From the NCBI GenBank assembly GCA_905178155.1, contig CAJINV010000007.1, forward strand, positions 814,627-878,626: a stretch of DNA of 64,000 nt, in the 5' to 3' direction. The notes under the pieces are model-generated. The model did no database searches. It was not told the DNA's origin and saw only the letters and a list, made by a program, of their open reading frames with translations. Each line of letters starts with the position of its first letter. The stretch's first letter is position 1. The position numbers and the translations under genes are program-made. Of the stretch, positions 6,009-63,766 are shown piece after piece. This DNA comes from Amoebophrya sp. A120. Lineage: Eukaryota > Protista > Dinoflagellata.

Positions 6009-6161
6009 GCTAAGCTCTCGCGCCTCGACAGCTCCGGTTGTCGCCTCGTGTCGCTGAGATCATCAGTCTCTCTCTTATTCGCGACTGAGGTTGTTTTAGG
6101 GCGAGCCCGACGTGCCGGCAAATGGGCAACATAACGAATCGATCTTTTCATAGTGATCAAA
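6009..6161 (+). repeat. Split direct repeat copy B2 (element 3' end)
   Basis: Identical to 5458-5610. Confidence 0.95.
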
Positions 6162-7119: not shown

Positions 7120-10100
7120 ATGCAGCCGGCGAGCATTTTGCACCGCGACTGCGATCCGAAGCACCAGCACGATCACTTGCATGTGCACTTTGCGGACAAT
7201 AAGGAAATAAATTCCCTACCTAGCGACCACACATCACGTCAAGTCGCCATGGTGCCTGATCGTGCTGGTGGAGATCTAGATCATGCAACGACTGATGTAG
7301 TCAACACGTCAACAAAAAAGTTGGTATCGCCGCCACGTCGACCTTCCTCGCTGCACTATGATGATGAGGATCCACGACCTAGAACAATGGAGGCTCCTGC
7401 AGGAGAAAAAATAAATGTTGACAATAACTTTAACTCGACCTCCACGTACAACTACCCCGGTGCGGCCGCCCGGGACCACGAGAATGCGGCTCTACTGCTG
7501 AGTGCGGGAGATGAAGTTGTTGTACTAGTGGATACTACTAGTGCTACGAATGGTGCAGAAGTGGGACACGTTCATGAACATGCTGCTGCAGATCAGGAAC
7601 AGGAGATGGAGAATGATGAAACACAAACAACCCCCTCGTCCCGCGAAGGCTGTTGCCGGTGCACGAAAATGTGCGTCCTGATCCTTCTCCTCATATTTCT
7701 TGTCCTCGCAGGCGGTGCGTGCGTTTTCATTTTCGTTCCCTGGTTCGACGGTTGGACTGAATCCTGGTACACAAGATGGAGAAAAGGATGGGACGACTCT
7801 ATTACAGTGAAAAGTGCCCCCCACTCCTGAAATTGCAAAAATTTGTGATGCGAGGTTTCCAAATGAAAACTTTTCGTCATGCATGAAAGGAGTATGAATC
7901 TACTTTCTGATGCAGAGCCTAGGCGTGTATCGCATCGCCTGCATGACCAGCGCCGCTCTTGCTAGCGTCTTTTGCTATACAAATTTTTGCTATTCACGAT
8001 TGGGAACCTGTGATGCTGATAGATGCAAGAGGGCGAGTGTTTCACTTGGAAGGGTTTGCAATACAAACGCTCCCAAGTTCGGGGGTGGGAGCATTTTTCA
8101 TTGCAATAGACTCTCAACAGCCTTCATGGCCTTCTCAACCTGGTTCTCAATCTCAACACCACGTGGAGATCGACTACAACGACGGCCCAGGGGTGTGGCC
8201 AACAGCGGACTTAGAAAACGTTAAGGAACCAGTGGGAATGATGCACGAGAAATACCACGGCTTTTTGACCCAAGCCTCGATTGACTACGTGGAAAGGAAT
8301 TTCTACAAAAAAACTGTTGTTCCTGTTCCACCTGGTGGAGCACCACCACCTCCACCTCCGCCACAACCTCCTGTCCAGACGAAAATTCCGCGAAATCTGA
8401 TCCTCACGGCGTTTTTTGACGAAAAGGATGTGACCTTGGACGAGTTTTTGCGGTATCAGAAGTGGCGGGACCCGACAAAAACAGAAGGGTTTGCGCAGTG
8501 GGCCGAGTTGAACGCCGGACCGGGAAAGGAGTTTGAAGTGAAGTTCTTCAACCTGAATGCGGCCAGAGAGTACCTGCAGGAGCATTACAAAAAGGAGATG
8601 CTCTGGGCATTCGATGCGTTCGATACCTACTGCATGAAATCCGATTTGTTCCGCTTGCTAGTCCTGTACCGGGAAGGGGGGGTGTACATCGACTGGAAGC
8701 TCGCCCCGGTCGTCGACTGGGACAAGTTGTTGGAGATGGCGTTTTCCGGGACGGAAAAGTTCCGGTCTCCAAGAAAAGTGACGAGAGACCCAGTGACGAA
8801 AAGGGTCGTTTCGGAGGAAAAAATGCAGTCCAAGGACGACATTGGACTCATCTTCGCCTGCCAAGACTTCACGTTTTCGTTTGGGGTCGAAGACCCTAAC
8901 TTTTTCGAATCATTCCCGGCCATCAAGCAGTTGCCGAACTGGCCGAACCAAGACTCCTCACTACAAGGCTTGATGAACGCTTTCATCGCGGCGAAACCGC
9001 TAAACTTACTCCTCGGGGACATGATCTACCACTTATTCCGCCGCGTGGAATTGCACGCGTACGGAAACACCGTGTGGGATACCACGGGGCCGATAGGCCT
9101 CTACATCTCCTTACTCCGCGTAGACCCGGTATGGATGTGTCAGGTTTGAAATCGTCAGAGTTGAAATAGTTTGCCATGCATAAAATGGATGCCAGTTCAA
9201 GTGGCCCATGTTGGAGCCCAGTTTTCAAGTGGCCCATGACAAGTTTTGGTGGTACCTAAATCCAGTTTGTAATGCTGTTTGGGTAAAGAAGACGCCTTTT
9301 GTCATGCTACTTTAGCAGCTCTATTTCTACCCCTCAACAGGCTTGCAATATGCCTCCCTTGCCTACTCTCCAAGACAGGCGCTCTGTGGGTTGCATTTTA
9401 TGCATCACAAATTATTTCAACTTTGACGATTTCAATCCTGACGCTTCCATACCCGGCCACGAAAGTGACAAAAATGCCAGAGGTGCTGCAGCAGGCCCTC
9501 GCGCGGCACCAACTACGAGCCGCGCGAAGGACGTTGTTTCGAACCGGGGGGCAGATGACACAGACTTCACCTACTACACAGCGTCACCAGGGTTTAATAA
9601 ATCTTCAAAACCGTGCACAGACTAGTGCAGCTCCGAACAATTCGACGCCTTCAAACCTCGCCGGTTTCCTCGACTCTGCGCAGTGGACTATCCAACGACA
9701 AGCGCGGCGGAAAAACGGCGATGTGCTGGGAAAGTGGGAGTGTTCGCAGCTCCAGGGGGGGCCGGGCGACGCGGCGTTTCTGGTCTACAACGGAGGGAAG
9801 CACTGGTTTCCCAACCACGAAATCGCCTATTCCCATCCGGGGAATGACCCAGAGATGGATAAGCTCGCCGTGGTAAAAAACGTTTGGTCGGGCAAACACG
9901 CGGGCGGCGGATGGAACCACGACGGCACCCAAGCGCTGCCGTCCGACATCCCCCGCCACCTCAACGGGCGGAACTACATGGAAGACTGGAAGGAAAGGAA
10001 GTGGTTCGCAGCCAACTGCTACGCATTGCAAATATGTAGTCTGGGTCCTAGAAAGGATCGCAATTTGTGATGCGAATTCTACATCATGACGAAATCAAAA

Positions 10101-10384
10101 TCTGCCATGCATGGCCAGCAAAAGGTCCCATTTTTTCTGTATGCCGAGAAAAGAGGGGCGCATTAGGCAGCATTTGGAGAGCTGCTCGAAATAATTATCT
10201 GTGATGCTAAAGCTTTCATGCGGCCCGACGATATCCGGGTCTGGCAGAAACTGCATGACAAATCTCGCACCACTGCTCTTCCAGACGACCCAGACATAAT
10301 ATATTTGCATTTGATAACTGTTACGAGGAGGTTCCAGGGGTGTCATGGCCGGGCGTAGCGGATAAGGAGTACCAGTGTCGCTAA
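7120..10384 (+). CDS. Type II membrane glycosyltransferase family 32 (OCH1/Gly_transf_sug-like), 4 exons
   Basis: Exons ~7120-7799, 8114-9129, 9457-10019, 10322-10384 join in frame after introner removal; TM helix, KIPR, KSDLFRLLVLYREGGVYID, NAFIAAKP, TTGP. Confidence 0.85.
7800..8108. mobile_element. Introner family C
   Basis: TIRs; DR GACTC/GACTC; frame restored. Confidence 0.9.
9130..9451. mobile_element. Introner family A (TATGGATGTGTCAG)
   Basis: DR CCCGG/CCCGG. Confidence 0.9.
10020..10316. mobile_element. Introner family B (TGCAAATATGTCTGGGTCT)
   Basis: DR ACTGC/ACTGT. Confidence 0.85.
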
Positions 10385-11258: not shown

Positions 11259-11493
11259 TATGGAGTTCTCAAATGTTACATTCTCAACTGTTACATGATT
11301 TGTCATGCAAAACTACCATTATCATCCACACGATCAAGCTGCTCTGCATGACAAATCCTGGAAGGGCCAAACAGGCTGACAATCTGCGCCAAGTCTGTCA
11401 TGCAAGACGCGCAATGCCCCCCCTTTCATTTTTCCCATTCTTGCATCACAAATTCATGTAACAGTTGACAATGTAACGATTGAGAACGCCATA
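11259..11493. mobile_element. Introner family D (TATGGCGTTCTCAAACG), outside any CDS
   Basis: DR CAACA/CAACA. Confidence 0.9.
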
Positions 11494-12767: not shown

Positions 12768-15700
12768 ATGGTGGCAGCCAATATGGCGTTCTCAAACGTT
12801 ACATTCTCAACTGTTACACGAATTTGCAATGCAAGAATAGCAAAAGTCAAAGGAGGAAGGCTGCACCTCTAGCATTACAAACTCCGCACAGATTTAGGTG
12901 CTTTTTAGCCCTTCGCAAATTTGTCATGCAAAGCAGTTTGCTCGTATGGATCTTGATGGTAGTTTTGCATGACAAATTCATGTAACAGCTGAGAATGTAA
13001 CGTTTGAGAGCGCCATAGCCAATCACAGCAACGCTGCCGGCGATTGGAACAACGCGTCCAAGTGGGGGCCTCCTAACAAAGCGGCGAACAACAAGTGGAA
13101 AAGCAGCAAGAATGCTGGCGACCACAACTCCAACTGGAACAGTAGCACCGGGAACAATGGTGCAACGTGGGGAAACAACAACAATAACTGGAAAAACAAC
13201 AAGAAGAATTGGAACAAAAACAACGCGAATCATCAAAAGGCGAACTGGAACAACGGTGCTAGTGGTTACAACGACGGGATGCATAATTACAACAGCGGAG
13301 GTGGTTCATGGGGACAGGACCAACAGCAGGGATGGAGCAACGGTCACCAAGGTATGATGGCGGGTCAGGATCAGCAGGGAGGTCCTGCTGGGTACAGCAA
13401 TGGATACGGTGGCAGCAATGGTTCTTACAACAACCAACAATACGATCAACAGCACCACCAGATGGGTACTAACACGACGGCGTCCGGTGCTGATTACAGC
13501 CAGCAGATGCAGTACGGACAAGAGCAGCATCAAAACGGTAATATGATGGACCATGGACACGGACAGTACAGCCAGCAACAGCAATACAACCTCCAGCAAG
13601 TAGATCCGTACAATCCCATGAGCGGCAACGTGGACCAGATGTACAGCCAGCAACAAAATATCACACAGAAAAAAGCTGGCAGGGCATATTTGTAATGCAA
13701 AAATAAATACACAAAAAAATCTGTATTGCATATCCGAAACAGCATGCTATGGGGCCACCCATGACAACTTTTTCTGTGTATTTATTTTTGCATTACAAAT
13801 ACAAATATGCCCCGCCAGCTTTTTTCTCTGGGATACAAAACGGATCGTACAATCACGAGACGAGTTCCATGATGCACCAGCAGCACCAGCAGAACAACAT
13901 GCAGCCAGAAGTTTACAACAACAGCAACGGGGCACCAGCTAGTCATGGCCGGGACGATGTGCCCCCCGTCGGCATGATGCCAGCTGCGGGCATGCATTCC
14001 GACAGTCAGAGTAATCAGGGTCCCTCCCTCTCGGACCAACTACGGGAACAGCTGATGCAGCAATTAAAGAAGACCCAACAAGAAGCGGCGGCTGTAAATC
14101 ATCTTCGTGAGGGTCAAGCGAATAAAAGCTCCGAGAAGCGGCGCCCGCGGGGAACAAGGGTATAGGATTTTGGCGATGGAGATATACTGCCTGTCATGCA
14201 GGAGAACTGCGGTGAAGGTGATTTAGGTTTTATAAAGTGCTAGCTCGTCATGCATCTGCATGCATGATTGTTCATTAAATTATCAAAATCAATATCATAT
14301 ACAAGAATGTCGTTACTACAGAACACCCCTGCGACGCCGATCTCGTCAAACACTTCGCCGTTGAAACCGGTCGCGTTGGAAATAGATCCCGACGAACCGG
14401 AGCTGAAGGTATGATATGATAAAACTACAAGAAGAGCGTGTGTTTGTGATGCATAACAGGTACAGGAACTGCCGGCGTATTACTATCTAAACTGCAGCAG
14501 CTGGTCAAAAATGCAGGCGAGGGGTATGTTCGGGGGTATGTTCGGGGGTGTGTCAGGGGTATGCAAATGGCCGTCAATCACGGGCGGATTACAATTTTTT
14601 GGCGAAAAAGCAACAGGTGGGGTATAAACATACCCCAGACACACCCCAGACACACCCCAGACATACCCCAGACAGACCCCCGAACACACCCCAGGCAAAA
14701 AGTCCGAACATACCCCAGACACACCCCGGACACACCCCGGGCAGACTTTCCGACACACCCCGGGCAGACTTTCGGACACACCCCGGACACACTTTGGGAC
14801 CTCGCCACGCGAGATGTGCAATGGCGGGCTCCAGTTTGTCACGCGAGCCGCCACCCTGTCGAGCTTCCCGGGCCCCGTTGGCAAGGCCCAGGGACGAAAG
14901 GCGCCCTCGGTCAGCGCGGGGACCCGGTCCCCGTGTCATGACCTGGGGGCCAGATTTGGGCGCTTCCCGGACACCGTACGGCCCAGGGGCAAAAGCCCTA
15001 GGTCAGCGCGGGGACTCGGTCCCCGCGTCATGACCTAGGGGCCAGCTATGGGCGCTTACATCCCGGAAACCAACCGCATGGCCCAGGAACAAAAGCCCTA
15101 GGTCAGCGCGGGGACTCGGTCCCCGCGTCATGACCTAGGGGCCAGCTTTGGGCGCTTCCCGGAAACTAACCGCACGGCCCAGCCAGGGGCAAAAGCCCTA
15201 GGCCAGCGCGGGGACTCGGTCCCCGCGGGGCCAGCTTTGGGCGCTTCCCGGAAACTAACCGCACGGCCCAGGGGCAAAGCCCTAGGCCAGCGCGGGGACC
15301 CGGTCCCCGCGCGCGTCATGACCTAGGGGCCAGCTTTGGGCGCTTCCCGGATGGAAACTAACCGCATTACCGAGGAGCAAAAGCCCTACCTAGGGCAGCG
15401 CGGGGACTCGGTCCCCGCGTCATGACCTAGGGGCCAGCTTTGGGCGCTTCCCGGAAACTAACCGCATTGCCGAGGCGCAAAAGCCCTAGGTCAGCGCGGG
15501 GACTCGGTCCCCGCGTCATGACCTAGGGACCAGCTTTGGGCGCTTCCCGGAAACTAACCGCATGGCCGAGGCGCAAAAGCCCTAGGTCAGCGCGGGGACT
15601 CGGTCCCCGCGAGCGTCATGACCGAGGGGCCAGCTTTGGGCGCTTCCCGGAAACTAACCGCATGGCCGAGGCGCAAAAGCCCTAGGTCAGCGCGGGGACT

Positions 15701-18700
15701 CGGTCCCCGCGAGCGTCATGACCGAGGGGCCAGCTTTGGGCGCTTCCCGGAAACTAACCGCATGGCCGAGGCGCAAAAGCCCTAGGTCAGCGCGGGGACT
15801 CGGTCCCCGCGTCATAACGTAGGGGCCAGCTTTGGGCGTTTCATTCCCGGAAACTAGCCGCACGGCCCAGGGGCAAAAGCCCTAGGTCAGCGCGGGGACT
15901 CGGTCCCCGCGTCATGACCTAGGGGCCAGCTGCAGACCCGGCGCCAGCTTCTTCCTTTCTGTTTTCTTTGTTCGCGGTAGGTTAACGGGTCTAGTGTGGG
16001 CAAGCAGAGGGGCTCCGTCCGCAGATCTGTCGCGGATCAGGGGACGCAGCCCACACAGAAACACCGGGCTGCAGGGGTCTGCCTGCCCAGTGCCACCACA
16101 ACCCCCGAACTCGTCCCAGACAAATGCCGGAAGGTCGCCGCACGGGGACTCTGTCCCCGTGCTCGGACCTTGTTTCTCATGCAAAATCTTATTCTTTCAA
16201 AACAAAGCCTTCTGATAGTGATACTAGTACTACCGAGAAGGAATTTTGTTTTGTAGATGAACTACCTGCTATCCACGAACTTCTCTCACGACAGACTCCC
16301 GGGGGTCCGGAAAACCAGAAAAGCAGCATCCATCGTCCGAAAAGTAGCAAGTTCCTGAAATCTGACGACAAGTCTGACGATAACTCCACCAACAGCAAAA
16401 AATCTCGGGTTTGCACGCCGCCGCTCCCTATGGATTTCAAAAATGTCTGGGTCTGGAAGATTGTGATTGTCAGATTTGTCATGCAGCTTTTCCATGATTC
16501 ATGAGGTCTGGAATGCAGGACCTAGCATCACAGATTTTTAGGGGGCCTCCTGATGCCTAGTCCGCATGACGAATGCCCTCTCCACGTAGCACAAGGTGGA
16601 CTCTTCTTGCTGTCCACGTAGCACAAGCGGGTGTCCACCTAGGGTATTGGCAGAGGCTAAATCTGTTCTAACGCCACGGTATTGGCAGAGGCTAAATCTG
16701 TTCTAACGCCACCCTGACAGGAGTCAAATGTCAAAGCGATACGATGCACGTAGCACAAGCTGGACTCTTCTTGCTGGTCATGCAACACAGATCTTTTTAG
16801 AATCCAAAAGCAGCATCACAAGTTGCAACCTTCCAGACCCAGACATATTTGCATTTGATACTCCCCCCAAATAGTACTTCTAATTCACATTCGGACAATA
16901 AAAACAACAAAACATCTTCCAGTCTGCTTTCCGGCGCGAATTCTTTATTCGCGGGCAGTCCAGGAGGAGTGGAAGGCACGAATTTGAATCCGCTGTTAGC
17001 CGCTGCGGCGGGTGCGGGCGGCGCTGGAGGTGGGGCGAGTAGTGGAGCAGGAGCAGCTGCTGGTGCTCCGGGTTCTTCGAATCCTGCTTTATCAAATGCA
17101 AAAATGTCTGGGTCTGGAATGTTGCCGGGTTTGTCTTTGTCGTGCATATTTTGCATGACCCAGGATGTCTGTAATACAGGACCTAGCATCACAGATTTTT
17201 AGAGGGCTTCCTGGTGCCTATTCCGCATGAAAAATGCCCTCCCCGCGTAACACAAACTAGACTCCTCTTGCTGATCATGCAATACAGATTTTTTTGGAAT
17301 CCAAAGCTAGCATCACAAGCTCCAACCTTCCAGACCCAGAGATGTATGCGCTTGATACGCTTTGTCCGCGTATGACCAGATGTTCAACGACCTCCTCGGG
17401 TTCTACACTGCGAACCCAAGTTTGATCCCCGGCTTCCCCGGAGGTTTACCTGGTGCAGCAGCTCCGGGAGCAGGAATGATTCCCGGAGCAGCTCCCGCTG
17501 GTTTGCTGCCGGGTCTGGCCGGGTTACCTGGGTTGCCCGGAGCTGCAGGACCGCTCGGGGTTCCAATGCCGGGGTTTCCAATGGTGCCGGGCTTGGGTGG
17601 TTTTCCAGGGCTCCCAGGAACTGCGGGGTTGCCTGGCGCTATCCCCGGATTTCCGGACCCGACGGCCCTGTTTCCAGGATTGGATTATGGGAAAATTCTG
17701 GGCGAGACCTGGGGTGCAGCGGGATTGACTTTGGTATAGTTGTTTCTTCCCATAGTACTTTGATGCATCTTGAGCATGACAGAAGATCTCGATGTGGTCG
17801 TGTTTGGTGAACTTGCTGCTTGTCCAGTACTTGTCGATGCGAAGAACTTAAATGTTAATATATCTGAAATCACCGGTTGTACAACATGATCTCCAAAACA
17901 GCCCCCGCCGTTCGACGGCTCGGTTACCTTCGACGAGTGGATGGCACAGTATGGGACTCTCAAATGTTACATTCTCAACTGTTACACGATTTGTCATGCA
18001 AAATTGCCATCAGTATCTGCATGATCAAGCTGCTGCGCATGACAAACGGCAAACAGGCTGAGAATCTGTGCCAAATCTGTCATGCAAGACGCGCAAGGTC
18101 CCCCTTTTCACGTTTGCCGTTCTTGCATCACAAATTCATTTAACAGCTGACAGTGTAACGTTTGAGAATGCCATACACAGGCGGCTTTCGCCGGAGCTGG
18201 TGGTTTTCCCGGAGCTGGAGGACCAAAGGTTGCTGGTGGCCCTTTTTCCGCCCCCGGAAGTGGACTGATGGGCGGTGCAAAAGGTGGGAAATTTGGCGGC
18301 GGCGGTGCACCAGACGGTTGGTGGAATTCGATCGGGAAACACGGAAGCAGTAGTAGTGGTGGTCCTACATCCACCACAAACGAGTCCGAGCGTCCCCCGC
18401 CCACCTCCTGGTACGCGAATAAAAACGGGAAAGGTGTTGCAACCAACAACCCAGTATGCATTGCAAAAGTATCGTATTCGTATAAATGCATCACAAATTT
18501 CCTCAGCATGAGAATAGAAGTTGTAATGCGGATTTGACTTAACGAAAAGATTTGTAATGCATGATTGCAATACGAGTACGACGCTTTTGCACAGGATACC
18601 CAGACTCCACAAACAAGCCCGGTGCGCATGGGAAGAACAACCCGGAGGCGTACCAGAAGATGATGCGCGAGTGGTACCAGTCGTGGGATCCGACCGGAAA

Positions 18701-49556: not shown

Positions 49557-49835
49557 TATCCTGAGTAAAAACGTACCCACACCAGAGTCAGGATGGGGAT
49601 TTTGCAACACAAACCTAGGAGTTTTGTGAGTCACGCATGACAAGTTTCAGTCCGTAAGGTAGTGCAAGTTAGCAAGGAAAGCAGCATCACAAATCGACCT
49701 TCTGATCCTGTTTACAGCATTACAAGTTCCCAAACACGATTGAAAATGCCTGTCATGGGGTTGCGCATCACAAATGTTCCTGTCATGGCAAATCTGCATG
49801 ACAACTCTGGGGTGGGTACGTTTTTACTCAGGATA
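49557..49835. mobile_element. Introner family J
   Basis: TIRs near-perfect; ACCCG repeat displaced by 3 nt on the right. Confidence 0.85.
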
Positions 49836-50268
49836 AAAACCCGACGTCGATCATCACGCGCCGGTCGTACAGGGCGCAAAGCCTACCTCTGCAGGCCCTC
49901 CCGATTTCTTTGAGACCTGGCTGGGCGCTCGGTGGACCCTCGATATCAAACGCAATAATAGAGTCATCGAATCGACTGGGGGGCCGTAGTGGTTCTCGGG
50001 AAGATTTTTGTAAGAGGAGCATAATGCTGCAAACTTGTTGTCAACATCTTGATCATCTTCATCCGCATGTAGTTTGTAGAACACGTCGACACAAATTGTA
50101 TCAGTCATGCATGGATGAAAGTCAAAGTAAGTTCCGTTGCTCATTTCTTTTATGTCGCCAAGGGCACCAAGGGACTAAAAACTTTTCGCGTTGCGGAAAG
50201 CGGTGATGTTGTAATATGCTAGGCATTGAACAACTTCTCAACATCAATAATGAAAACGTCTGAATAAG

Positions 50269-50530
50269 TATGAGGGTGTCAGGTATTGAATTTTCAAGTA
50301 CTTTCAAAATTTTTATTAGCTATTGAAAACCGCACTTTAACTAATGTATGATTTTCATTTAAACTTTAAATAGCTAGATCAGGGGCTATGTGCGTCGCGC
50401 GTGACGCCGAATGCCCCTGATCTAGCTAGTTCAAATACAGATGCAAAATTTTAATTACTTTAAGTGCGGTTTTCAATAGCTAATAAAAATTTTGAAAGTA
50501 GTTGAAAACTCAACACCTGACGCCCTCATA
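50269..50530. mobile_element. A-related foldback element, non-exonic
   Basis: DR ATAAG; ~120-bp arms. Confidence 0.9.
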
Positions 50531-50556
50531 ATAAGATGCTAGCGCTTGCATTCCAG

Positions 50557-53500
50557 AGCCTCTGGAATGCAAGCGCTAGCATCTTGTTCAGACGTTTTGC
50601 TTCTGCAGCTGGGTCAGCACAATTTGACAAATATGTACTCTGCTCGTCCCGATGCCGATCATGAACCACCAGATCTAGTTCGATGTTTTTTGCGTTGGAT
50701 ACTCGACCGGGCGGCGCAATTCTCTTTCGCAAGCTCCCTGCACGCGTTTGATGCTTTTGGACTTGGAGGAGGAGCTTTTTACCCTGTTGCACCAAGGAGC
50801 TCCCGAAACGTATTTGATGATGTTCTACTTGGAGCATTTCCAGAAGTTGTGCCAACCTCTAGTAGTACTTCATCGGTAAAGGTACGTGAAGAACTTCTTC
50901 TAAAACAGTTTTTCAATACACTACACCCGCAAAAAGCTTTCTCTTTCGCGTGTCCTGATTCTGTGCTCCGACGGTCAAGAACAAGCTACGAGAACAAGCT
51001 ACGTGCACGACGGACCAACAAGCGAACCGAGAAGCGGATCTTGGAAAGTAGCGAGCACAAAAATTGGCAATCGGTTCTTTCTGAAGGGACGGCGGCGGGA
51101 GAAGATGGTCGTGACAAAGAGGATGCAGTGCTGCAACTAGATCAACAGCGGGAAATGATATTAAACGAGGAGCCAGACGATGCTTCCGAGGTAGACTTCG
51201 CTCCTGCTTTGTTAGGTTTATGCAGTGCAAAAGTATCGTACTCGTATAAATGCATTACAAATTTCCTCAGCATGAGAAATGAAATTGAAATTTGTAATGC
51301 TACATTGCCTTAAGAACAAGATTTGTAATGCATGATTGCAATACGAGTACGATATTTTTGCACAGGATAAGGTTGGCGGGAGCAACAGAAACCTAAATTC
51401 GAGCGCACGCCAGTTTTTCTACCTGACGATGATGAACCGTGGAAAAAGGAATTGGCAACCGCGTGCGAGGCCTTTGCGCAGCGGGGCCAGGCGGTGTGGG
51501 ACTCTTTGTCGTTCCAGAAAGAACAGTTTTTCGGAAAATTACACCATTACCGGTTGCTCATCTTGCAGGCCGCGGTGACAACGGCCACGGTGGATGTATT
51601 TGTTCCGCGGGGGTCTGGTGAAGGAGTTCATCTTGAGAGGACCATGGTTGAAGATGAAAAGAATAAGAAGGATAGTAACACTAATCAGGTTCTTCAGGAT
51701 GAACTACTTGAAGAAACAACGCCGGCGGATAAAGAAATGGACCTTCACTACAGCACGAGGGGCAAGACGAAGATGCTTTTTGCAGACGCGGCTTCCTACG
51801 GAGGCGAAGGCGGTGGTGACGACAACTACCAAGTGTCTCAACAACTTATACCTGTTTCGCTTCCGCCGTTTTTGCGATTCGATGTGGAATTAATCGCCTT
51901 GACGTACCTTTTGCGACCCGATACGCCTTGGCCAGGTGGAGCAGGGTATAGACAAGATCATGCAGCAGGATTTTTTACAGCACAGCCAGCTCCGACGTCC
52001 TTGCCCTTTGAAGAAGATGTTGTTGAGACTACAAGAACTTCTTCTACGGCAAAAGCAGATAAAGTAGAGAAGCGATTCGGAACTGGAACAAGCACAAGCA
52101 GCGCCGGAGCGGCTTCTGCGCAAGGGAGTAGATCACGGCGACAGGGTGAACGAGGAGCAAGCACCGCTAGTACTTCGGACTTATTTGTGGACGCATTTGG
52201 GTCTGCGGTGCGGGGAAATTTCAAGACGGTCCGGAGTCTGGCAAAATTTAGTCGCAAACTGCTGGCTGCCGTGAGCAAAACTTCTAGTGCCACTTCTCAG
52301 ATAAAGGCGATACTTTTACCGAAGACGAGTAGTGCCGAAGATGACACGAGCCGTAGTGCTACCAGTAGGAGAAATCAAAACGTGTTTTTGGATCATGATG
52401 AAACTGATCTTCATCATCTTTCTTCCGACGATCAAACACCGTCTCAGAGCAAGTTGGCCCCGTCTACTCCAGCAGATCAAGTAGAACATACTGCGTCCAC
52501 CTCGTCCCTCCTAAGTGCTGATCTGGAATTTAACGAACACCTTTTGAGGCTCCTGCAGGAGCAGGGAATGACAATGAATTCTGATATGGGCGAGCAGACC
52601 CAGAAGCCGAGCGGCAGACCACCTGGACGCACAACTATCGGGCCATTGGGAAGAATTTCAAATAGAGACGACGAACAAGCACAGGAGGAACTACAAAAGC
52701 GACAACCTCGGCAAGGAGATGAAGAAGGACAACTGGGCATATCGTCCCTGCTGCAGCGTGTCTTCGCGACCAACACGAATCTCCTGCCCGTCTTGCGCTC
52801 CTTGCGCGGCGCTGTGGCGATATTATTAGCTGGGGGCGACACGACACCAACATCTAGTTCCGGCGGCGAAAAGGATAAAGTGCCATCAATTTTTTCTAAT
52901 TCTTCGATGTTGAGCGAAGTAGAACATGAAGTTCTTACAGTAAAAGGACTACTAGCACCATCGACAGGTGGACGACGAGCTCCTGCACGACGGCGTAACA
53001 AGGACTTGGAGCCGCAAAAGTTTTCTGCGCGCATCGATGAGACAGTGCGACAGCTCCTTCCTGAAAGATTTGGCGACGTCGCTGGTACTAGCCGTAGGAC
53101 TTATCCCATGTGAAATAAACCGACACAACCCATGATATTGATTACCCCATAGTGGAGATGATGAAAATTTTTGCAATTCATTGTTCCTTCTGGACGACAA
53201 GGACAAATCCAAACACACGCATGACAGTCACCAGTAGTGCTGCAATCGTGCTTGGCTGTAGGAAAATCCGCATCGGATAATTTATTATATGCTGAACCAG
53301 GTTTGTACTTCTAGAACAGCACGACAATTCTCAAAAAACGGAAAGTAGAAAATGGCGCTCATGTTGTGCGGGAGGACAAGATGCCGCGTCAGACGTGTCG
53401 TTCTGGGCATGATGCAGAGTTGTATTTGCATGACAAAGAGTGTCGTGGGATTCCTTCTCCTCATTGGTCGTGCGTGTTTGCGCATGATACGGCTCTATCC

Positions 53501-56500
53501 ACGTGCGATGTACGCGACGCAAGGAGGAACTTTGTCGATCAACACGGTGTCGAACCGCAAAGCGATCTAATCCCGACGGAGCTTCTAGACGATTACACCT
53601 GGGTGGCCGAAATGCAAGCGTGGCAGCACGCGAAGCTGATTGTATGGATTGCAAATATGTCATCTGGGTCCTCTGGAAAGATGCAAGCTTTATTGTCATT
53701 GTACATTTTATTGCATGGCCCCCCACGCCCACCGTGTGTTGTTGCCTCGGCATCACAGGTTTTGTGATGGCTTTTCAATGCGGCTCTCCCGCATGAGAAA
53801 TGCCCTCTCTGCAGCGTTAGCAAAAGCTGGACGGCGGCGCTTGCTGCTCATGCAATAGTGCACACTTTTGTACTAGGACTAGGATCTTCCACACCAGGCC
53901 GCATCACAAACACAAGTTTGCATACTTCCAGACATCCAGGGATATTCGCAGTGGATAAACCGAGATGCTCCGCCATTTTTTTCTCCAGCACAGCCGAACC
54001 GATCTCCATACCTTCGCGTCGCTGCAGCTGCTCACCTGCAGCTTATTGCAGGTTCCGGAATCTTCATCTTCGCGTAGTACGCAGGGGGACGTCGGCAACG
54101 GGGACGATAAAAATTCGTTTTCTACAGATGAAAAACAAAGAGTAGTCCAACAAGAAAACATCGGAGCTCAGTTGGACTCTATTTTCCGGAGTGCCGTATT
54201 GAACAGAGAAATATTAAGCACGAGGTCCTGGACCGAGCGATGGAAATCGAAGCAGCGATTCGACGAATGCCGTGCCGTCGCGCGGCGCGAGGGAGCTGGT
54301 GCCTGCAACTACGTCGGCCCGGCCACCTCCGCTGCGGAAATAAATTCTCACGCAGCATCTTGCTCGTCGCGCCACCTGTACGCCGACATCAAAAATGGTA
54401 CGGACTATGTTGATTCAGCACACCATATTGACCATGAAGATGAGACCAGCTCCGTCGTCGATTTACCAACAGCTGCAGTACGACCTCCACCACACGGACC
54501 ACGTACCACATCATCTGCCGCGGGGCTGCCTCAGTTCCGTGCCTTTCTGCTCCAGCAACTGGCGTTGATTTTAACGGATGTTGTGGCAGAGGAAGATCTT
54601 CCTGTGGAAGAAGAAGGTCGACGTGGTGAGCCGGTATTTTCAAAAACACATGCCGATCGTAATCGATTCACAACTTCAGAATTATCATCTCTTTTCCTCT
54701 TTCAAACCGATTTTCTGCGGGAAACGTTTCTGAGGCGAGAGTTTGATCCGCAAATCGCGCTGGAGGATGCGCGAAACCGATCTTCGTCGGCAGCTGCAGG
54801 AGCAGTAGACCAGGACACAGTAAAGCAGAACAACGAGTACTTCTCGAGCAACGTTCCCTACCTGTGCCAGCCCGAGCGGCTCCTGTACGTGCAAGAAGAG
54901 AAAAAGCACCAATTCGGACCAGCACCGGTAGAAGAACTACAAGGTGAAGCAGACGAAATTATATTTCACCGCCGTAATATATGGATGTGTCAGAATCGAA
55001 ATTGACAAAATCGAAAAACTTGTGATGCATAAAATCGATACCAGTTGGAAGGCAGTTTCCAAGCGGCGCAAGACAAATTTCGGGAGCACCCAGATCGAGT
55101 CTGTCATGCTGTTTGGGCAAAGAAGACCGCTCCTCTCATGCTACTCTGGTAGCACATTGCATACCCCTAGACAGGCTTACAATCGGTCTCATTTGCCTGC
55201 TCTCCAATACAGGCCTCCAGTGCCCTGCATTTTACGCATCACAAATTTTTCGATTTTGTCGATTTCGATTCTGACACCTCCATATAATAAAATGAACACC
55301 GACCTGGTTTTCAAGAGCGCTCTGGCGTACCTGCGGCGTTTTCGGGATTTGTTTATACAGGGGGCGAAGAATATGGCCCTGAGCGACCCTCTGTCGGGCT
55401 ATCATGTGACGGACGTTTTCTCCACGATCTCCGATAGTGGTCAGAGTAAAACGATGAAAACCGGGGAGATACAACTGGTGCAGAAGTCCAGTGCCGGAGG
55501 TGGAGGTGGAGAGGGCGACGAGGAAAAAATGATATTAAATCGAGATGAAACTACTGTAGTGTCGAGTTTAGATCGCAAAATGCGGGGCTTTCGGAGAAAC
55601 TACGACAATAATCATGTTCTTGCACCAGATGAGGAAGTGGAGCTGAAGATGAAGATGACGAGCAAAAATCGCGCACAACAAGACGGAGTACCAAGTGTTG
55701 AAAAATCTTCGAACATGCAAAATCCTCCTGAAGCGGCCCCTGTAGTCCTCGTGAGTGCTCAACATCAAGAAACTAGTCCTGGGACGCCACGACGGTCGTC
55801 AACTACATCTCCTCTACTTCGTCTGCTATGGGAGCAGAACGAAGCTAGATATAAGGCGGAGAACGGTACAGAGACTTGCTTTTTGCGCGAGAACTACCTG
55901 TGGCCAGGAGCCCCGACGGTGGTCGTCGTGGAGGGTGGCGACGAGAGGCTGGCGGGAGAGAACTACAAGGTTGATGATTTTCTTTCAGCCGGACGAGGCA
56001 CAGGAACTACTGCAACCGGTAGTAGGTGGCTGAAGAACGACAAGGCAAAGGCTCTTTTGTCAACATCTTCCCACCACCCACTTCGGCCTCCCTGGTTCTG
56101 GCAAGATTTGCGGTTCACGGAAATGTGCCACGACGCTAAGATCTTCAACGAGGAGGCGGAACAAAGGAGAGTGAATCATGCTGCTCCTGCTGGTGCCTCA
56201 TCAAATAAATTTCTTCTAAAATCTACTGTCGCAACACCTCAACGACCAGCACTAAATGCACTTGCTACACAAGACGAGAACCACGCGACCCACCAGGACG
56301 AGCTGCAAGGCGTTTCGCGCCGCCTCTATGTCACAGAAAAAAGCTACCAGGTCAGCACTTTTGGGAAATGCAAAAATAAAAAACTAAAATACGACAGATA
56401 CACAAGTTAGGACGCGTGCTGTCTACAGATTTTCTCTTTTCTGTGTATCTGTAGCTGAACTCATCTAACTTTTGTAATTTTTTTTCTTTGATGCATTTGC

Positions 56501-59500
56501 ATTGCATCAAATGTCAATGTGACCCGCTAGCATGATTTTTTTGCTGGATAGTCTCTCCACAGAGCTGATGAAGGAGCTTCCCGTCGTCCTTGAAGAACGG
56601 AATGACGGTGACGCTGCGCAGAAAAGCACCTTGACCTCGCACCGCATTCTGCTCCCCGATAAGCTAAATGCCACCTCCACCCGGGCAGGAGCACTGGATA
56701 GTAGTACTCAGTCGGCGGGTATCCAAGAAAAAAACTGTGTTAGTGTAACTTTCTTTGGCTGACAGAATTACAGATTTGCTCTACATGACAAAGAAAATTT
56801 CACATGCGTGGCTTCTAAGGGAAAGCACACACGAAAAGAGGACTTCGTGGTTGTCTGGCATGACAGGCGTAAGTCTCTTGCATGTTTTGCATCACAGATT
56901 TACACGTACACAGTTTTTTTCTTGCATAGCGGGTGGCCACGACGGAGGCCTGCACAATGTCAATGCAGGAACTGAAGAAGTACGATCGGCTGAGGACGAC
57001 CTCCCGTATGGCAAAATCGACACCCCGCGGTTGCAAAATCCAAAAGTTATACAAGTGCCGACGAGTAAGCAATCGGAATCGATTGCGATTCGTCCACGAT
57101 CTATTCCCCCACCTCCTGCCGCGACCACTATTCCACGAAGTTACTCGCAAGGATCGAATGAATTTACAAGCCGCAACATCAAACGACATGAACTTCTGGA
57201 AAGGCAGAAAAGAGCAACGCATCTTATTGAGAGGAAAGATTCCCCCTCCTCATATCGAAAAGGTATGTAGTTTGTCAAAAAAATTTCCACTACTGATTTG
57301 CGACCACAAATCGTGTCTGTCTTGCAACAGGCGGGCAAATAACTACCCAAGGAGTCCGCCGCGTTGATTTATTTTATGTAGGCGATTTGCAGCAACGCTC
57401 CTGTGCCTTCGAGAAGTACTGGGCAGGCCCCCTCTGGTGCTGCGTTCAGCGCCAACACGACCACAGCACCCCTTTCTATGCCTATGTTGCGCACCAGGTC
57501 CTCCTCGCGACCTGCCTCTAGTACGACCTCACTGACACTGCAAGAAGACAAAACTGATTATGTTGTGTACTACCCAAGAAATCTTTTGATTATGGTATCC
57601 CACGAAAAAAGTGTTACAGTTACACATTTGTAAGGCAATGCAGCAACACAAATGTCCCTGCATGAGAGAGAAAACCTGTCATGCAGAAATCCTACGGGAA
57701 AACACCTATGAGAAGAGGGTCCTATGCATATCCGGCACGACAGAGCTTGTCTGTCTTGCTTGACCTGCAAGACAATGTGTAACTGTAGCACTTTTTTCTT
57801 GCGATATATGGAGAGGCGGGGGGATGTTTCATCTTGGTACGTGAACTGGAGCAGCTAGCGAAAGAAAAGGATCCGGACAGGGACAGGGTTATGGAGTTCT
57901 CAAACGTTACATTCTCAACTGTTACATTAATTTGTCATGCAAAACTACCATCATCATCCACAAGATCAAGCTGCTGCGCATGACAAATTTGCGAAGGGCT
58001 AAACAGCGCCTAAATCTGCGCGGGATTTGTAATGGAATTTTTGCAATCTTCCCTCTTTTGCTTTTGCCATTCCTGCATTGCAGATTCATGTAACAGTTGA
58101 GAATGTAACGTTTGAGAACGCCATATGGGTGAAAGAAAGGGCACTCGTGGAAGAAATGAAAAAGACACAGGAGCTCATATTCCGCAACGACATGAGACGT
58201 GATAACATTAACGTAAGAGACGTTGATCAGCAAATCTATGTCAACACGCAGAAGGCACTGCAAAGATTGCAGGACTACCAAAATAAACGAATTTTACGTC
58301 TCGACCGCCACCTGAAAGGACATGTAGATGTTGCTGGTGGACCAGGACTTTCTACGAATGCAACTACGGTGGACCACGAGCCTCCCCTTGATGGTCGTAA
58401 GGTCGGGGAAATGAATATGAACAAAGACACGTCCATATGCATTGCAGATATGTCCTCTGGGTCCTCTGGAAGATCGCCCGGTTTGTCATGCATGTTTTGC
58501 GTGAACACGTCGCATGATGCCTGTAATGCATGACCTAACATCAGAGATTTAGATTTTTAGAGAACTACAACTACTTTTTACTTCCTGATGCCTATTTCGC
58601 ATGACCAGAAATGCCCCCGCCTCTGCGTAGCACAAACTGGATTCCTCTTCTTGCTGCTCAAGCAATACAATTTTTTTTAGAATCCAAAGACAGCATCTCA
58701 TCACAAGTTGCAACCTTCCAGACCCAGACAACACATTTGCAATTCATAGTCCACAGCATCTTCAGCCCCTCCTTCGGTTGATGTTATCATCCCAGATGAA
58801 AAGAATTCTGCAGTCGAGGGCGTCGACAACCCGAAGGGCCATCAATATGAAGATGAACCTCATGTTGATGTGGATGCAGTACACAATCTCATAAATGGTA
58901 AACCAAGTACGGAACAAAATTATGTCACAACTACCTACGATATCAATTGTAAAAATGTCTGGGTCTAGAAGAATTCATGTTTGTTATGCTTGTCTGGCAT
59001 GACTCTTAAATCTGTCGTGCACGTTACCCAAGAGCTCCGTTTTTCTGTGATGCAGAAGCGCAGTTTGTCATGCAGAAAAGGCTTCACCTAGGAGCTCAGA
59101 AACTTGTCATGCTGAGCCAGCATTTGTAGCCCCATCATGACACGCCACTCAGCATCACAAGTTTCCAGACCCAGACATTTTTGCATTTGATATACGAAAA
59201 CCTGGGTTTTGGCTGGTGCGCAAACGAGACCGGACCGATCGAGTATCATGATGAAAAAATCTCCCTCCCCATATCGAAACGGCACGTCCTCTCCGAAAAT
59301 TTGCAATGCGGATTTGTGGCCACAAATCGCGTCTGTCTTGCAAGAAGGCAACGCCACAGGCTCCGCCGCATTATGCCGGCTGCCTTTGATGCTGGTGGGC
59401 CTACTAGTACAGCATAGACGTTTACTCTGATGCTAAACGGCTAGGCCAGCCCCTCTCTACTCAGGCGCGATATTGGCCTGCAGCCCTTCAGTGCAAGACG

Positions 59501-62500
59501 CAGCGGATTTGTGTACGCAAATCCAGCCTCCGAAATAACTTCGTTTCGATATCATGGGGAGGGGGAATTTTTCTTTCTGATATCGAGACAAGACACCTGG
59601 CAATTGCTGGAGATGTCGAGAGACCCAGTGGAAGAGGCGTGCCATTCCTCGATTATGACCTGCTCAAGCGTTACAATCTCAAATCGGCTACCATAGAGTC
59701 TGCTAGGTTCGTTTTGTGTTGCATGATGAGCATGACAGACTCGCACAGCGTTCCACTTTCTGCAATACAAAGCTCGCCAGATTCTAGTAGTGCGAATTGG
59801 GTGGACTCCAGAACTTGTCATGCGCAATCCTGTGGGAGTAGGGTAGATCATGCACCTCTTGCATCACAGATTTCCATATTCCATTGTAACCACTAGAGAT
59901 TGCAAAAGCTGAGCAAGTCATATCGATTCCTCGAAGATTCTGAAAGAAGAGTGCGAAAAGTCGTGCACGGCGAACGAGTGGAAAATACCGGGACTCAGGT
60001 ATCAAAAGGAAAAATCCTCGCTCCCCATACTGACAGGTAAGGTATATTTTTGGAAATTTGTGATGCTGACTTGTGCTCACAAATCGTGTCTGTCTTGCAA
60101 GAAGGCAACTCCGCAGGCTCTGCCGCACTGGCGTGATTGCGCAGGCGGTTTGTCGTGCTGTTAGACCTACAGCGCGGACGTTTTCCATGCTACGCGCCTA
60201 GGCCCCCACAGCCTCCCTACTCACGCCTGGCAATATGGGGCTGCAGTGCTCTCCAGCAAGACAGCTCGGATTTGTGTACACAGATCCAGTGGCAGAAGTT
60301 TCGTATTTGTTATGGGGGGGATTTAGATTTCTCGTTTCCATATCGTGCTGCAGCTGGATGGAGGACGCAGGCCGCTACCAAGGTCCTTCGACTTATGGAT
60401 GTGTCAGGATCGAAATCGACAAAGTCGACAAATTTGCGACGCATAAAATACAGGGCACTGAAGGCCTGTATTGGGGAGCAGGCAAATGAAACCGAGTGTA
60501 AGTCCGTTTAGGGGTAATACACAATGTGCTGCCAAAGTAGCACTACAGGCGGAGTCTTCTTTGCCGAAACAGCATGACAGACTGGCTTTCGGTACTCCCG
60601 AAATTTGTCATGCGCCAGTTGGAAACTGAGGCTCCAACTGCCATCGATTTGGTGCATCACAAATTTTTCGACTTTGATGTCAATTTCGATTCTGAAACTT
60701 CCATACGACTGCCGGGGCTACATGTACTCGAACAATTGTCTCATCTTCGTGAACAACACCCCTACAAGAGTTTCGGAGAGTCACGAAGTAGCGAGCAGAC
60801 AGCCGAGGCCAGGCTGGATTCGCTTTCCCTGCATGAAGAAAGTGGTTTCAAGTTCAACGTCTCCTGCTTATTCGTCCAGTATAATCCCTACGACAGGTAC
60901 TGTCGCTGCACGAGGACCATCATCTTCTGCGAGCCATACTACAACTGCGACGGGACGACCATCATCTTCTGCGAGCCATAGTACAACTGCGACGGGTCGT
61001 GGACCATCCTCTGACACAACGACGACAACATCAACATTAACATCTTCCCCCACGAGGATAACGTCGCAAACGAATATTAAACCATGGGACGAGAGGACCA
61101 TGCAGATGAACCCCCGTCCCAAGAATGCGACAATCTCGGACGACGACGATCCTGGAGTGCAAGGAGGACAAAAAGACCCCCAGCAGCAGGAAAATGCTCT
61201 CGACAGCCAAGATGGCCAGATCTTCACGGTAGCTATGCTAATGCTCTCGATCGCGCTTGCAGTAATATTTGGTCTTGTCGCCGTCTTTCTCCTGATCTGT
61301 ATTTTTTCGCTGGGTGGATCATGTGGAAGTTGTTGTGCTACGACCTGTATGAAATGCAAAAGCATCGTACTCGTACTAATCGCAGATACGCATGACAAAT
61401 CTGATTCCAAAGATAAATCAGCATGACAAATCCCATTTTCCATTCTAAGGAAATTTGTCATGCGATTTGTACTAGTACGACACTTTTGCAATGCATACCC
61501 TGCACATATTTCTCCTGCGAACTCCCCTGCGTGTGCGTGTGGCGTGATGAGGAGAAGGCTACCGCGCTGAAGGATATTAGTGGTGATAGAGCAGGTCCTC
61601 GAGAAGATAATAGTAACCCACCTGCTGCAAGCCGTGGCGGCCCTCGTGGCCGGGCGAAGGTGAAGACTGCAAGAGTTGAAATGGAGAGAGGGACGACGAC
61701 AACGCCCACTGGAGGTGCCAAAAAGAACGAAGTAGTCGCACCTGCCTCTCGCACCACTGCCAAAAGGGAACAAGTGGGTGAAGCCACGGGAGCTGCAGCT
61801 GCCGCCCGGTACGCGAACTTTCGGAAAAGTTTGAAACTGCATGGGCGGGGGGCGGCCACCGCTAGTACAACCACAGAGGCTGCAAAACGATCAGCTGGTG
61901 ATGTCGCTGCACCAACTACACAAGCTGCACAAGGAAGGGCACCAGAAGTTGTTCCCCTGAAAACGGATGGCGGTGGAACAAACTCAAGTAAAAAAGGGAA
62001 CAAGAAGGTTCAAAGCCATGCTCAATCAACATCGCCATCTTCAGTGGTACCCGCTCAACAACAGCCCCCGCCCAGTAGCCGGCCAAACCTGACGCAACCT
62101 ATGATGATCAACGTGGAGTATGACCACAAGTTGCGGAACTTCCAGGACATGGGCCAACGCAAATTCCTTGTCGGAAATCAGTTTCAGGCCGTTAAAAGTC
62201 GTGCGTTACAGCAAGGAAATGTTGATAATGTCTCGAAGCTTCAGCCACCTGCTGTCAACGGAGCTAGTACTGGTGTAGAAGAAGTACCTCGAAATAAAGA
62301 TGTTGATATGGTCGCTTATGAGGCCTACCTGCAGCAGTATAACCAGAATCAGCTGCATATGGATGTGTCAGGATTGAAATCGACAAAGTTGAAATAACTT
62401 GCCATGCATAAAATGGATGCCAGTTGGAACCCAGTTTCCAAGTGGCGCATGAGAAATTTGGGTAGAGGCGGAATCCAGTTTGTCATGCTGTTTGGGTAAG

Positions 62501-63766
62501 GAGGACGCCTTTTGTCATGCTACTTTAGCAGCTCTATTTCTACCCCGCAACAGGCTTACAATCTGCCTCCCTTGCCTACTCTGCAAGACAGGCATTTTGT
62601 GGGTTGCATTTTACGCATGACAAACTATTTCAACTTTGACGATTTCGATCCTGACGCTTCCATACTGCAGCTGCAGCAGCAGCAGGCCCAAGCAGTCGCG
62701 CCGCTCCGCGTCAAGGACCACTCCTACATATGACTTGCTCAAACGTTACAATCTCAAATGTCGTGACAATAGAATCTGGAATTTGTGTTGTGTGATGGGC
62801 ATGACAGACTCGCGCAGCGTTCCACCTTTTGCAATACAAATTTCCCCAGATTGTAGTGGGGTTTGGAGCTCCGGAACTTGTCATGCGCAACCCTATGAGA
62901 GTTGGCTAGATCATGCTCATCATGCAAGACAGATCTCAGATTCTATTGTAACGTTTGAGATTGTAACACCTGAGCGGGTTTTTATACTACACACCCCCCG
63001 CCTTCGTTTTGGATCAGAGACTGGGCCTTGTTGGAGGTACAACTTCTACTGCCGAGGAAGCAGTAGATCGTCGTACTCACAAAGAACAAGAGGACAGCAG
63101 CACAGCTGCAGCTTCGCTCGGTAAAAACTTCGACAACCTGTTTCGTTTGCCGCAAGAGGACCAAGATCAGCTTGCTCACCGCCCCTTGGATGAAAATAAT
63201 TTTAAGCTGCGACTCGAGGATCACGTTGAAAACGACAATGAACGCCAACTCCTTCCTATTAAGAGGAAAAATCCCCCCTCCCCATATCGAAAAGGTATGC
63301 TTCCGGAAATTTGTGATGCTGATTTGCGACCTCAAATCACGTCTGTCTTGCAAAAAGGCAACTCGACAAGCTACGCAGCATTGTGCAGGCGGTTTGTGAT
63401 GCTGATGGGCCTACAGCACGGACGTTTCTCATGCTAGACGCCTAGGCCAGAGCCTCTCTACTTAGGCCTAGTATGGGGCTGCATTCCTCTCCAGCAAGAC
63501 AGATCTTATTTGTGTACGCAAATCCTGCATCAGAAACTTCGTTCTGATATGGGGAGGGGGGATTTTTCCTGTTGATACTTCCTGCGTTTACGTTCTCTCC
63601 TGGTGATCAACATCATTCTGCGCTTACGTTCTCCCCAAGAAACACGACCGTCAAGGACGAGAGAGGCGACGAAACAAATCAGCGGACAAGCACTGATTCG
63701 TCCATGATTTCACCTCGAAATTCTAGCCGCCCGGTGACTTATCCCAACGGAAGACGAGTGTCTTAG
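50557..63766 (+). CDS. Large hypothetical protein, 3' part with Cys module, S/T stalk, TM helix and Cys-rich juxtamembrane tail
   Basis: Frame continuous across 18 introner sites; CEKSC..CRGYMYSNNC, TM IFTVAMLMLSIALAVIFGLVAVFLLICIF. A few junctions have degenerate repeats. Confidence 0.6.
51219..51369. mobile_element. Introner family F
   Basis: DR AGGTT. Confidence 0.9.
53102..53489. mobile_element. Introner, aged
   Basis: Weak TIR; DR GGACT/CGGCT; frame kept. Confidence 0.6.
53643..53957. mobile_element. Introner family B, aged
   Basis: DR GATTG/AACCG; frame kept. Confidence 0.75.
54980..55284. mobile_element. Introner family A
   Basis: DR TAATA. Confidence 0.9.
56327..56550. mobile_element. 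Introner family E
   Basis: DR GCCTC/GTCTC. Confidence 0.8.
56720..56928. mobile_element. Introner family G
   Basis: DR GCGGG. Confidence 0.9.
57225..57839. mobile_element. Introner family I, aged, host of a nested introner
   Basis: Right TIR split by 57596-57806; DR CATCT/CGTGA; frame kept. Confidence 0.7.
57596..57806. mobile_element. Introner family H nested in family I
   Basis: DR TATGG/TATGG. Confidence 0.9.
57890..58125. mobile_element. Introner family D
   Basis: DR AGGGT/TGGGT. Confidence 0.9.
58436..58748. mobile_element. Introner family B
   Basis: DR GTCCA. Confidence 0.9.
58941..59192. mobile_element. Introner family B
   Basis: DR TACGA. Confidence 0.9.
59244..59582. mobile_element. 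Introner family I
   Basis: DR TCGAG. Confidence 0.9.
59654..59922. mobile_element. Introner family L (TATGACCTGCTCA)
   Basis: DR TCGAT. Confidence 0.9.
60000..60342. mobile_element. Introner family I
   Basis: DR TCAGG/TCGTG. Confidence 0.8.
60394..60705. mobile_element. Introner family A
   Basis: DR CGACT. Confidence 0.9.
60915..60996 (+). repeat. 42-bp coding tandem duplication (PSSSASHxTTATGR)
   Basis: Two near-identical in-frame copies. Confidence 0.85.
61348..61497. mobile_element. Introner family F
   Basis: DR ACCTG/CCCTG. Confidence 0.88.
62358..62664. mobile_element. Introner family A
   Basis: DR CTGCA. Confidence 0.9.
62729..62986. mobile_element. Introner family L
   Basis: DR CTACA. 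Confidence 0.88.
63257..63577. mobile_element. Introner family I
   Basis: DR CTTCC. Confidence 0.9.

Follow-up and report, generated by a model that had tools for sequence, protein, structure and literature searches.

The 64,000-nucleotide stretch of the Amoebophrya sp. A120 genome analysed here, referred to as the window (contig CAJINV010000007.1, positions 814,627 to 878,626, forward strand), carries 70 top-level introners, repeated elements that possess terminal inverted repeats (TIRs) and are removed from transcripts. All junctions listed share one fixed splice register, in which the 5' cut lies 1 nt before the TAT that starts the element and the 3' cut lies 4 nt after the ATA that ends it, whatever the bases at the intron ends. 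The register is the new observation, whereas the class of element is already known, because TAT-starting introners of A120 were reported previously (Farhat et al. 2021, PMC7789003). We propose, with a probability of about 0.6, that the elements are removed by a relaxed U2-type spliceosome, which is predicted to read TAT and ATA in place of GT and AG.

Anatomy of the introners

An unbiased scan collected inverted repeats that lie between exact direct repeats, and relaxed scans, RNA junctions and an annotated protein then contributed to a curated set. Forty-four pairs in the window combine an exact 5-nt direct repeat with TAT...ATA ends at a TIR score of at least 10, compared with 0–1 in each of 10 local shuffles. 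Sorted by direct repeat length from 2 to 9 nt, the pairs number 25, 5, 1, 44, 0, 0, 1 and 0, thus the length of 5 is specific. When any terminal triplet is permitted, TAT starts 43 of the 50 strong pairs. The curated set is composed of 72 elements (70 top-level and two nested), together occupying 32% of the window; 66 measure 144–390 bp, 66 have both TAT and ATA ends, and 70 start with TAT. The 5-bp direct repeat is perfect in 49 of the 72 and contains at most one mismatch in 62. These figures confirm the preliminary description of this DNA, which had counted 70 introners between 7800 and 63577 with this anatomy. Two of the 59 hits from one relaxed scan (19249 and 24680), as well as cross-pairings from another, were discarded as spurious.

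The elements fall into 13–29 families depending on the threshold, in line with the earlier count of at least 13; a middle threshold gives 19, eight of them multi-member (69 elements). Their TIRs had been taken as unrelated in sequence, but the outer 13–15 bp or so share a TAT-S-N-A-N-T-G-C-A-A-A-type profile (200 elements). Insertion in both orientations, claimed earlier, is borne out by the interior scores of 11259 versus 12782 (42 forward, 169 reverse) and of 18455 versus 21624 (23 forward, 95 reverse). Folding predicts pairing of the TIRs in 63 of 67 elements, and stops occur in all three frames in 61 of 69. The claim that most elements cannot be GT-AG introns also stands: such a reading is possible in any register for only three of the 70 top-level elements, and for one at the true register, and 42 combinations of terminal dinucleotides are found among the 70.

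Coding sequence (22.9 kb) hosts 69 of the 70 top-level elements and non-coding DNA (9.3 kb) only one (p ~1e-9). This bias, accompanied by long element-free 3' untranslated regions, is the opposite of usual transposon distributions; candidate causes are targeting, a preference for GC and the loss of elements in non-coding DNA.

A fixed splice register

The RNA evidence is a set of contigs that represent two samples, both from one study. Contig sets X3–X6 were provisionally classed as RNA-like, by an automated guess and by their skipping of GT-AG introns, whereas X1 is DNA-like, its kind not being on record. In the region 16000–35900, the joints listed from X3 and X6 (15 of 811) comprise 14 element joints and one GT-AG joint. 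In the region 39000–54200, those listed from X3–X6 (15 of 19) comprise 14 element joints and one repeat chimera, the joint 40737-42383 between two family copies, which was discarded. The element plus 5 nt is skipped in all 28 element joints listed, and further junctions are accounted for by record lengths. Neither retention of elements nor use of unrelated GT-AG sites, named beforehand as the outcomes that would speak against removal of element plus 5 nt, was seen among the junctions listed.

We define the register as the number of nucleotides removed past ATA; where the two repeat copies agree, the junction can slide between registers. Registers 0, 1, 2, 3 and 5 are excluded by 14, 12, 8, 5 and 4 of the 28 joints, respectively, while register 4 is excluded by none. 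This register, N|TAT...ATA NNNN|, was predicted after the first contig set, before the second set provided three joints that cannot slide because their repeat copies differ. A fourth intron, at a site outside contig coverage, is placed in the same register by the annotated A120 protein P0121, which, like other annotated A120 proteins, may rest on the same data.

39387-39614, + strand, intron: joint 39386-39615 without slide, in one X6 contig; the two repeat copies share 1 of 5 bases; fixes the register uniquely
48579-48958, + strand, intron: joint 48578-48959 without slide; direct repeat decayed; fixes the register uniquely
49556-49839, + strand, intron: joint 49555-49840 without slide; 284 nt (element plus 5) removed; fixes the register uniquely
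57224-57843, + strand, intron: G at -7; register 4 only, from P0121

The repeat copies of the three register-fixing elements (39388, 48580 and 49557) agree at only 1–2 of 5 bases, and removal is unchanged; therefore the direct repeat is an insertion scar and not a splice signal. The preliminary description had found that removing element plus 5 nt restores the frame, which holds at every listed joint, but its sole exception, 49557, is no exception, since RNA skips 284 nt there; this joint also rules out a repeat-guided removal of 287 nt. P0121 further adds element 60000, which allows registers 4–5. Members of one family in opposite orientations (45708 versus 40507 and 53643) all exclude the mirrored register. 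Elements 45342, 48580 and 53102, whose ends pair weakly and which were missed by the TIR scans, are yet removed exactly.

Reading frames agree with this register. When each element is removed with 5 nt and nine GT-AG introns are spliced out as well, six genes of 773, 1632, 635, 206, 525 and at least 3842 aa result, whereas removal of the element plus 0, 3, 4, 6 or 7 nt yields at most 603–687 aa; plus 2 and plus 8 give the same frame as plus 5. In the 635-aa gene the exon length of the model, 1532 nt, exactly equals the span of an RNA record across eight elements and five GT-AG introns. Once spliced, the mago nashi model matches A120 protein P0002 without a difference over 206 aa, while its unspliced frame ends at 126 aa, and the spliced model of the longest gene is an exact prefix of P0121.

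Signals shared with conventional introns

The nine GT-AG introns of the same genes, all on the + strand, were compared with the elements:

14160-14321, GT-AG intron
14409-16294, GT-AG intron
17734-17901, GT-AG intron
21822-21907, GT-AG intron
30866-31012, GT-AG intron
32055-32199, GT-AG intron
33285-33380, GT-AG intron
33524-33645, GT-AG intron
34158-34293, GT-AG intron

Intron 21822 was placed by a joint (the X3/X6 contigs skip a GT-AG intron too), 14409 by a loose end, five by an exact length sum, and 14160 and 17734 by frame only. All nine start with GTA, eight of them with GTAT, and all nine have A at -7 (background 0.41, p ~3e-4). GTAT and A-7 occupy the same positions as TAT and ATA in the elements. 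In addition, elements contain the motifs GCATNACA and TGTNATGC at densities of 4.6 and 4.2 per kb, and GT-AG introns contain each at 3.85 per kb, against at most 0.1 per kb in coding sequence and non-coding DNA; the motifs are located about 45–55 nt from each end. Terminal pairing is absent in all eight GT-AG introns folded. A GC-rich tandem array of ~100-nt units (14500-16150) lies inside the 1886-nt intron 14409-16294.

Constraint on element ends outside the window

Elements were also collected at 135 loci (L001–L135; 390 kb) found by motif scan in one second assembly, with genes on both strands and free of overlap with the window outside elements. TAT...ATA ends are present in 237 of 306 unbiased hits; of the 332 elements called, 247 have a perfect 5-nt direct repeat. 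A coding model gave a confident gene strand for 131 of the 332, and neighbours agree in 77 of 78 cases. Of the 13 terminal-triplet variants at these loci, 12 affect positions +4, -6 or -5 on the coding strand (p = 0.002) and spare U+2, A+3 and A-7; the remaining one creates a GC donor. Five of the six window variants follow the same pattern, the exception being 57225, so that the pooled count, which includes this discovery set, is 17 of 19. Selection for GT or AG within target sites was considered and rejected, as +1, -1 and -2 are unconstrained; in the window G is found at +1 in 25 of 69 (p = 0.06).

Machinery of removal

In the mechanism that we favor, an integrase-like transposase would insert elements in either orientation, mostly into coding DNA, and duplicate 5 bp. 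The resulting intron reads N-TAT...ATA-NNNN, leaving bases +1, -1 and -2 free; as the 1+4 nt removed equal exactly one repeat copy, the original mRNA is restored for any target sequence. TAT would provide U+2, A+3 and U+4 of the host GTAT donor, while ATA would provide A at -7, a possible branch point. Because TAT and ATA are mutual reverse complements, both signals are present in either orientation. The GCATNACA and TGTNATGC motifs near each end may mark introns, and the hairpin could draw both ends close to each other and contribute to setting the 3' cut. Genome-wide data agree with this pattern: in Table S4 of PMC7789003, T is at +2 (NT-) in all nine commonest non-canonical ends of A120, and the nine listed for strain A25 are all TT-; the same paper reports 83 of 89 spliceosomal proteins as well as U2, U4, U5 and U6 in A120. 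We tentatively extend this reading, at somewhat less than even odds, to a single A120 spliceosome that needs neither terminal dinucleotide. Its 5' signal would be N/UAU, and its 3' signal an A placed exactly 7 nt before the 3' end (AUA-NNNN/). Such a code is self-complementary, and a TA-ended transposon with a 5-bp target-site duplication (TSD) carries it on both strands, so that any insertion, whatever its orientation, would produce an intron that can be removed perfectly; with a shift of one base (TTA at +1), this rule would account for A25 as well.

Several points weigh against a relaxed spliceosome. The standard spliceosome contacts +1, -1 and -2, and these positions show no GT or AG bias at the outside loci (G at +1 in 33 versus 36 in the mirror; AG in 10 versus 5 among 106). 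Four of the 13 strand calls for the terminal variants are weak, and the stronger calls alone give 8 of 9 (p = 0.02). Element 57225 has G at -7 but is cut at the usual register, therefore A-7 is not required for a 3' cut that follows the TIR end, and the notion of an invariant A-7 is ruled out. A-7 also sits inside the predicted stem, and a distance of 7 nt between branch and 3' end would be short compared with 10–63 nt in C. merolae; the branch point and lariat are predictions. The comparison involves nine GT-AG introns, two of them placed by frame alone, and all nine could be aged introners. Minor alternative splice sites may lie outside the joints listed. Finally, U1 snRNA was undetected in A120 (PMC7789003).

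The preliminary description had envisaged an orientation-symmetric, hairpin-defined excision. Removal in both orientations is observed, but the cut is asymmetric (1 nt at the 5' side, 4 nt at the 3' side) and does not need the direct repeat. A related scheme invokes a non-spliceosomal or second-spliceosome machinery that takes the base of the TIR hairpin as its reference, cuts 1 nt away on the 5' side and 4 nt away on the 3' side, and then joins the exons; such a mechanism has been proposed for the nonconventional introns of Euglena. The widespread TIR pairing, the free terminal dinucleotides, the behavior of 57225 and the undetected U1 all suit this scheme, as does the comparable fixed-offset code of Euglena (N3CDG...CHG-N5-6|R), where excised introns are circular in the accounts drawn on here. 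Pure pairing, however, predicts symmetric tolerance of end mutations, whereas the variants at the outside loci spare U+2, A+3 and A-7 on the coding strand, and weakly end-paired elements are still exactly removed. Since GTAT, A-7 and the internal motif are also found in GT-AG introns of these genes, which have no terminal hairpin, hairpin-defined excision is a live rival and not the best reading; we regard it as rather unlikely.

Two explanations that dispense with splicing of the elements altogether fare worse than a relaxed spliceosome. Hairpins combined with short repeats are a known setting for template switching, and reverse transcriptase jumping across the hairpin between direct repeats might create the junctions, which were seen in cDNA-derived contigs only (the raw-read run X9 has one read on this stretch and is uninformative). 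The same register is nevertheless found at 39388, 48580 and 49557, where usable repeats are absent, stops fill all frames of most elements, and an intact 206-aa Mago nashi requires removal, which leaves a cDNA artefact hardly credible. Excision from DNA at some life stage, similar to ciliate internal eliminated sequences, with transcription from the excised templates, would fit the transposon anatomy, and the sequence data are not split by life stage. X1 contigs, however, cross element-exon borders and contain none of the 15 joints seen in X3/X6, with the caveat that contigs drop rare variants. The cut is moreover asymmetric and identical for opposite element orientations, and the constraint on element ends tracks the coding strand, all of which makes DNA-level excision very improbable.

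Relation to known elements and splicing systems

The elements share with the published A120 introners a TAT-starting TIR followed by ~7 variable nucleotides and then As, 5-nt repeats, repeated families with non-GT-AG removal, and host proteins identical to A120 annotations (P0002, P0121). In the parts of PMC7789003 drawn on here, the inverted-repeat motifs of this same strain start with TAT and finish with a run of As, intron ends are non-canonical and no cognate transposase is given, in agreement with the earlier statement that such introners with inverted and direct repeats are known in Amoebophrya. The direct repeats are given there as 3–5 nt (5 bp in Fig. S19), compared with 5 bp here. That account describes repeat length and position as variable, with 'no clear splicing signature', borders that 'remain unknown' and splice sites variable relative to the hairpin, whereas we observe a 5-bp repeat and one register; removal does not depend on the repeat, and GT-AG introns have signals in common with the elements. 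For the A120 families of Gozashti et al. 2025 (PMC12130899), the portions used list TIR DNA-type elements, as here, including fam38 as 'Ginger, 5-bp TSD, TA/TA termini'; automated TSD calls are 2–6 bp or missing, the origin of splice sites differs per family, and the rows examined have no common register. Literature searches, which extended to later texts on Amoebophrya and a 2026 review, retrieved no statement of the -1/+4 register, although figures of PMC7789003 (Fig. 3, Figs S19–S25) and parts of the supplements may hold some of it.

In Euglena nonconventional introns (PMC12501133, PMC11170887, as far as excerpted), a terminal hairpin, free terminal dinucleotides and a fixed offset from a conserved triplet resemble the situation here, and the code was likewise derived from non-slidable junctions. 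The offsets there are 3 and 5–6 nt with CAG/CTG, compared with 1 and 4 here. The A120 code, N-TAT...ATA-N4, leaves the +1 base of the exon free and lacks the Euglena signature, while the predicted terminal hairpin is common to both. Conventional Euglena introns reportedly follow a separate code, whereas GT-AG introns here carry the same signals as the elements. The U2-type termini GT/GC...AG are absent as a rule, as seen from the single GT-AG element at the true register. Fritillaria borealis, in the parts of PMC11282704 and 10.1101/2025.08.15.670264 considered, offers a precedent for non-GT-AG introners derived from miniature inverted-repeat transposable elements and handled by a U2-type system; A is at -2 in 88% of its unambiguous introns, while -2 is free here.

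How the ~65% of A120 introns that lack GT-AG are removed had been an open question, their borders having been described as variable or unknown. The -1/+4 register supplies one rule for these seemingly chaotic splice sites, explains why elements with a 5-bp TSD are harmless in either orientation and in any target, and permits the re-annotation of tens of thousands of introns. It also makes exact predictions (the 5' site, a branch at A-7, a repeat that removal does not need), by which a relaxed spliceosome can be told apart from hairpin splicing of the Euglena type. A spliceosome without need for G+1 or AG would, if true, widen the known limits of splice-site chemistry.

Origin of the elements

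Judging from their TIRs, their grouping into families, the nesting and the free sequence of the 5-bp repeats, the elements are likely non-autonomous DNA transposons. No match to transposase or integrase families was found among 92 open reading frames (ORFs) of at least 230 aa in the 390 kb of outside loci, the long elements there (631–2459 bp) hold no recognisable transposase, and an Rfam search gave 0 matches. Locus L064 contains an introner (476-2934) with a 2.2-kb insertion and a 415-aa minus-strand ORF without Pfam match. The elements resemble GingerRoot and Ginger, as presented in part of PMC6839031, in their TA...TA termini, TIRs and GC-rich target preference. GingerRoot elements measure 3.9–12.9 kb and encode a transposase, whereas none was found in the ORFs of the outside loci. 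The TSD is 6 bp in GingerRoot and Ginger2 and 4 bp in Ginger1 according to the same source, therefore the 5-bp TSD here departs from both.

Genes and element coordinates

All genes below are on the + strand; terminal triplets that deviate are given in parentheses.

7120-10384, gene (773 aa), three introners; basis: frame only, outside contig coverage
Introners: 7800-8108, 9130-9451, 10020-10316 (starts TAC)
11259-11493, introner; the one top-level element in non-coding DNA, oriented opposite to 12782
12768-26667, gene (1632 aa), 23 introners (12782-26321); basis: 14 joints listed in X3/X6 and absent from X1, record-length checks, ORF
Introners 1–12: 12782-13017, 13659-13835, 16429-16860, 17090-17357, 17950-18175, 18455-18598, 18713-18987, 19095-19303 (TAC), 19382-19603, 19844-20054, 20103-20263, 20970-21225
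Introners 13–23: 21300-21565, 21624-21768, 21960-23724, 23769-23927, 24056-24366, 24414-24574, 24622-24831, 24896-25042, 25624-25868, 25933-26141 (ATT), 26173-26321
30747-35553, gene (635 aa), eight introners
Introners: 31164-31778, 31819-31980, 32269-32540, 32773-32953, 32990-33206, 33730-33956, 34370-34657 (ATT), 35048-35298
36864-38010, mago nashi gene, two introners
Introners: 37204-37501, 37650-37867
39269-42511, gene (525 aa), seven introners; basis: X6 joints and pieces
Introners: 39388-39610, 40193-40395, 40507-40758, 41081-41311, 41390-41697, 41955-42103, 42142-42405
43569->63737, gene (at least 3842 aa), 26 top-level introners (44901-63577); basis: 11 joints in X3–X5, P0121
Introners 1–13: 44901-45265, 45342-45596 (ACA), 45708-45972, 46017-46269, 46987-47641, 48580-48954, 49557-49835, 49944-50701, 51219-51369, 53102-53489, 53643-53957, 54980-55284, 56327-56550
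Introners 14–26: 56720-56928, 57225-57839 (GTA), 57890-58125, 58436-58748, 58941-59192, 59244-59582, 59654-59922, 60000-60342, 60394-60705, 61348-61497, 62358-62664, 62729-62986, 63257-63577
50269-50530, nested element inside 49944-50701; near-perfect palindrome with 5-bp repeat; outer element skipped in RNA as 763 nt
57596-57806, nested element inside 57225-57839

Mago nashi, a core gene of the exon junction complex, itself carries two introners, and its product has a long Ser/Arg-rich N-terminal extension. Introner 21960-23724 contains an insertion of ~1.6 kb (22030-23600) with its own inverted ends and related copies elsewhere; the whole region of 1770 nt is skipped in RNA-like contigs. A homolog search with exon 61504-62352 of the longest gene returned no match. 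A further TAT-starting element seems to start at 63739 and to run off the window (63739-64000), and P0121 departs from the unspliced frame there.

Neighbouring features

A DIRS-like retroelement without introners occupies positions 3-5327. Past it, a direct repeat of ~150 bp (5455-5610 and about 6010-6165) was noted by eye only, and a scripted check did not locate it. The 1051-aa ORF 2172-5327 of the retroelement had no Pfam match and no significant PDB match; it resembles RVT_1/RNase H/Dam clusters (0.96 in Atlas). Two ORFs located upstream, 3-1070 and 905-1888, appear tyrosine-recombinase-like, as judged by eye.

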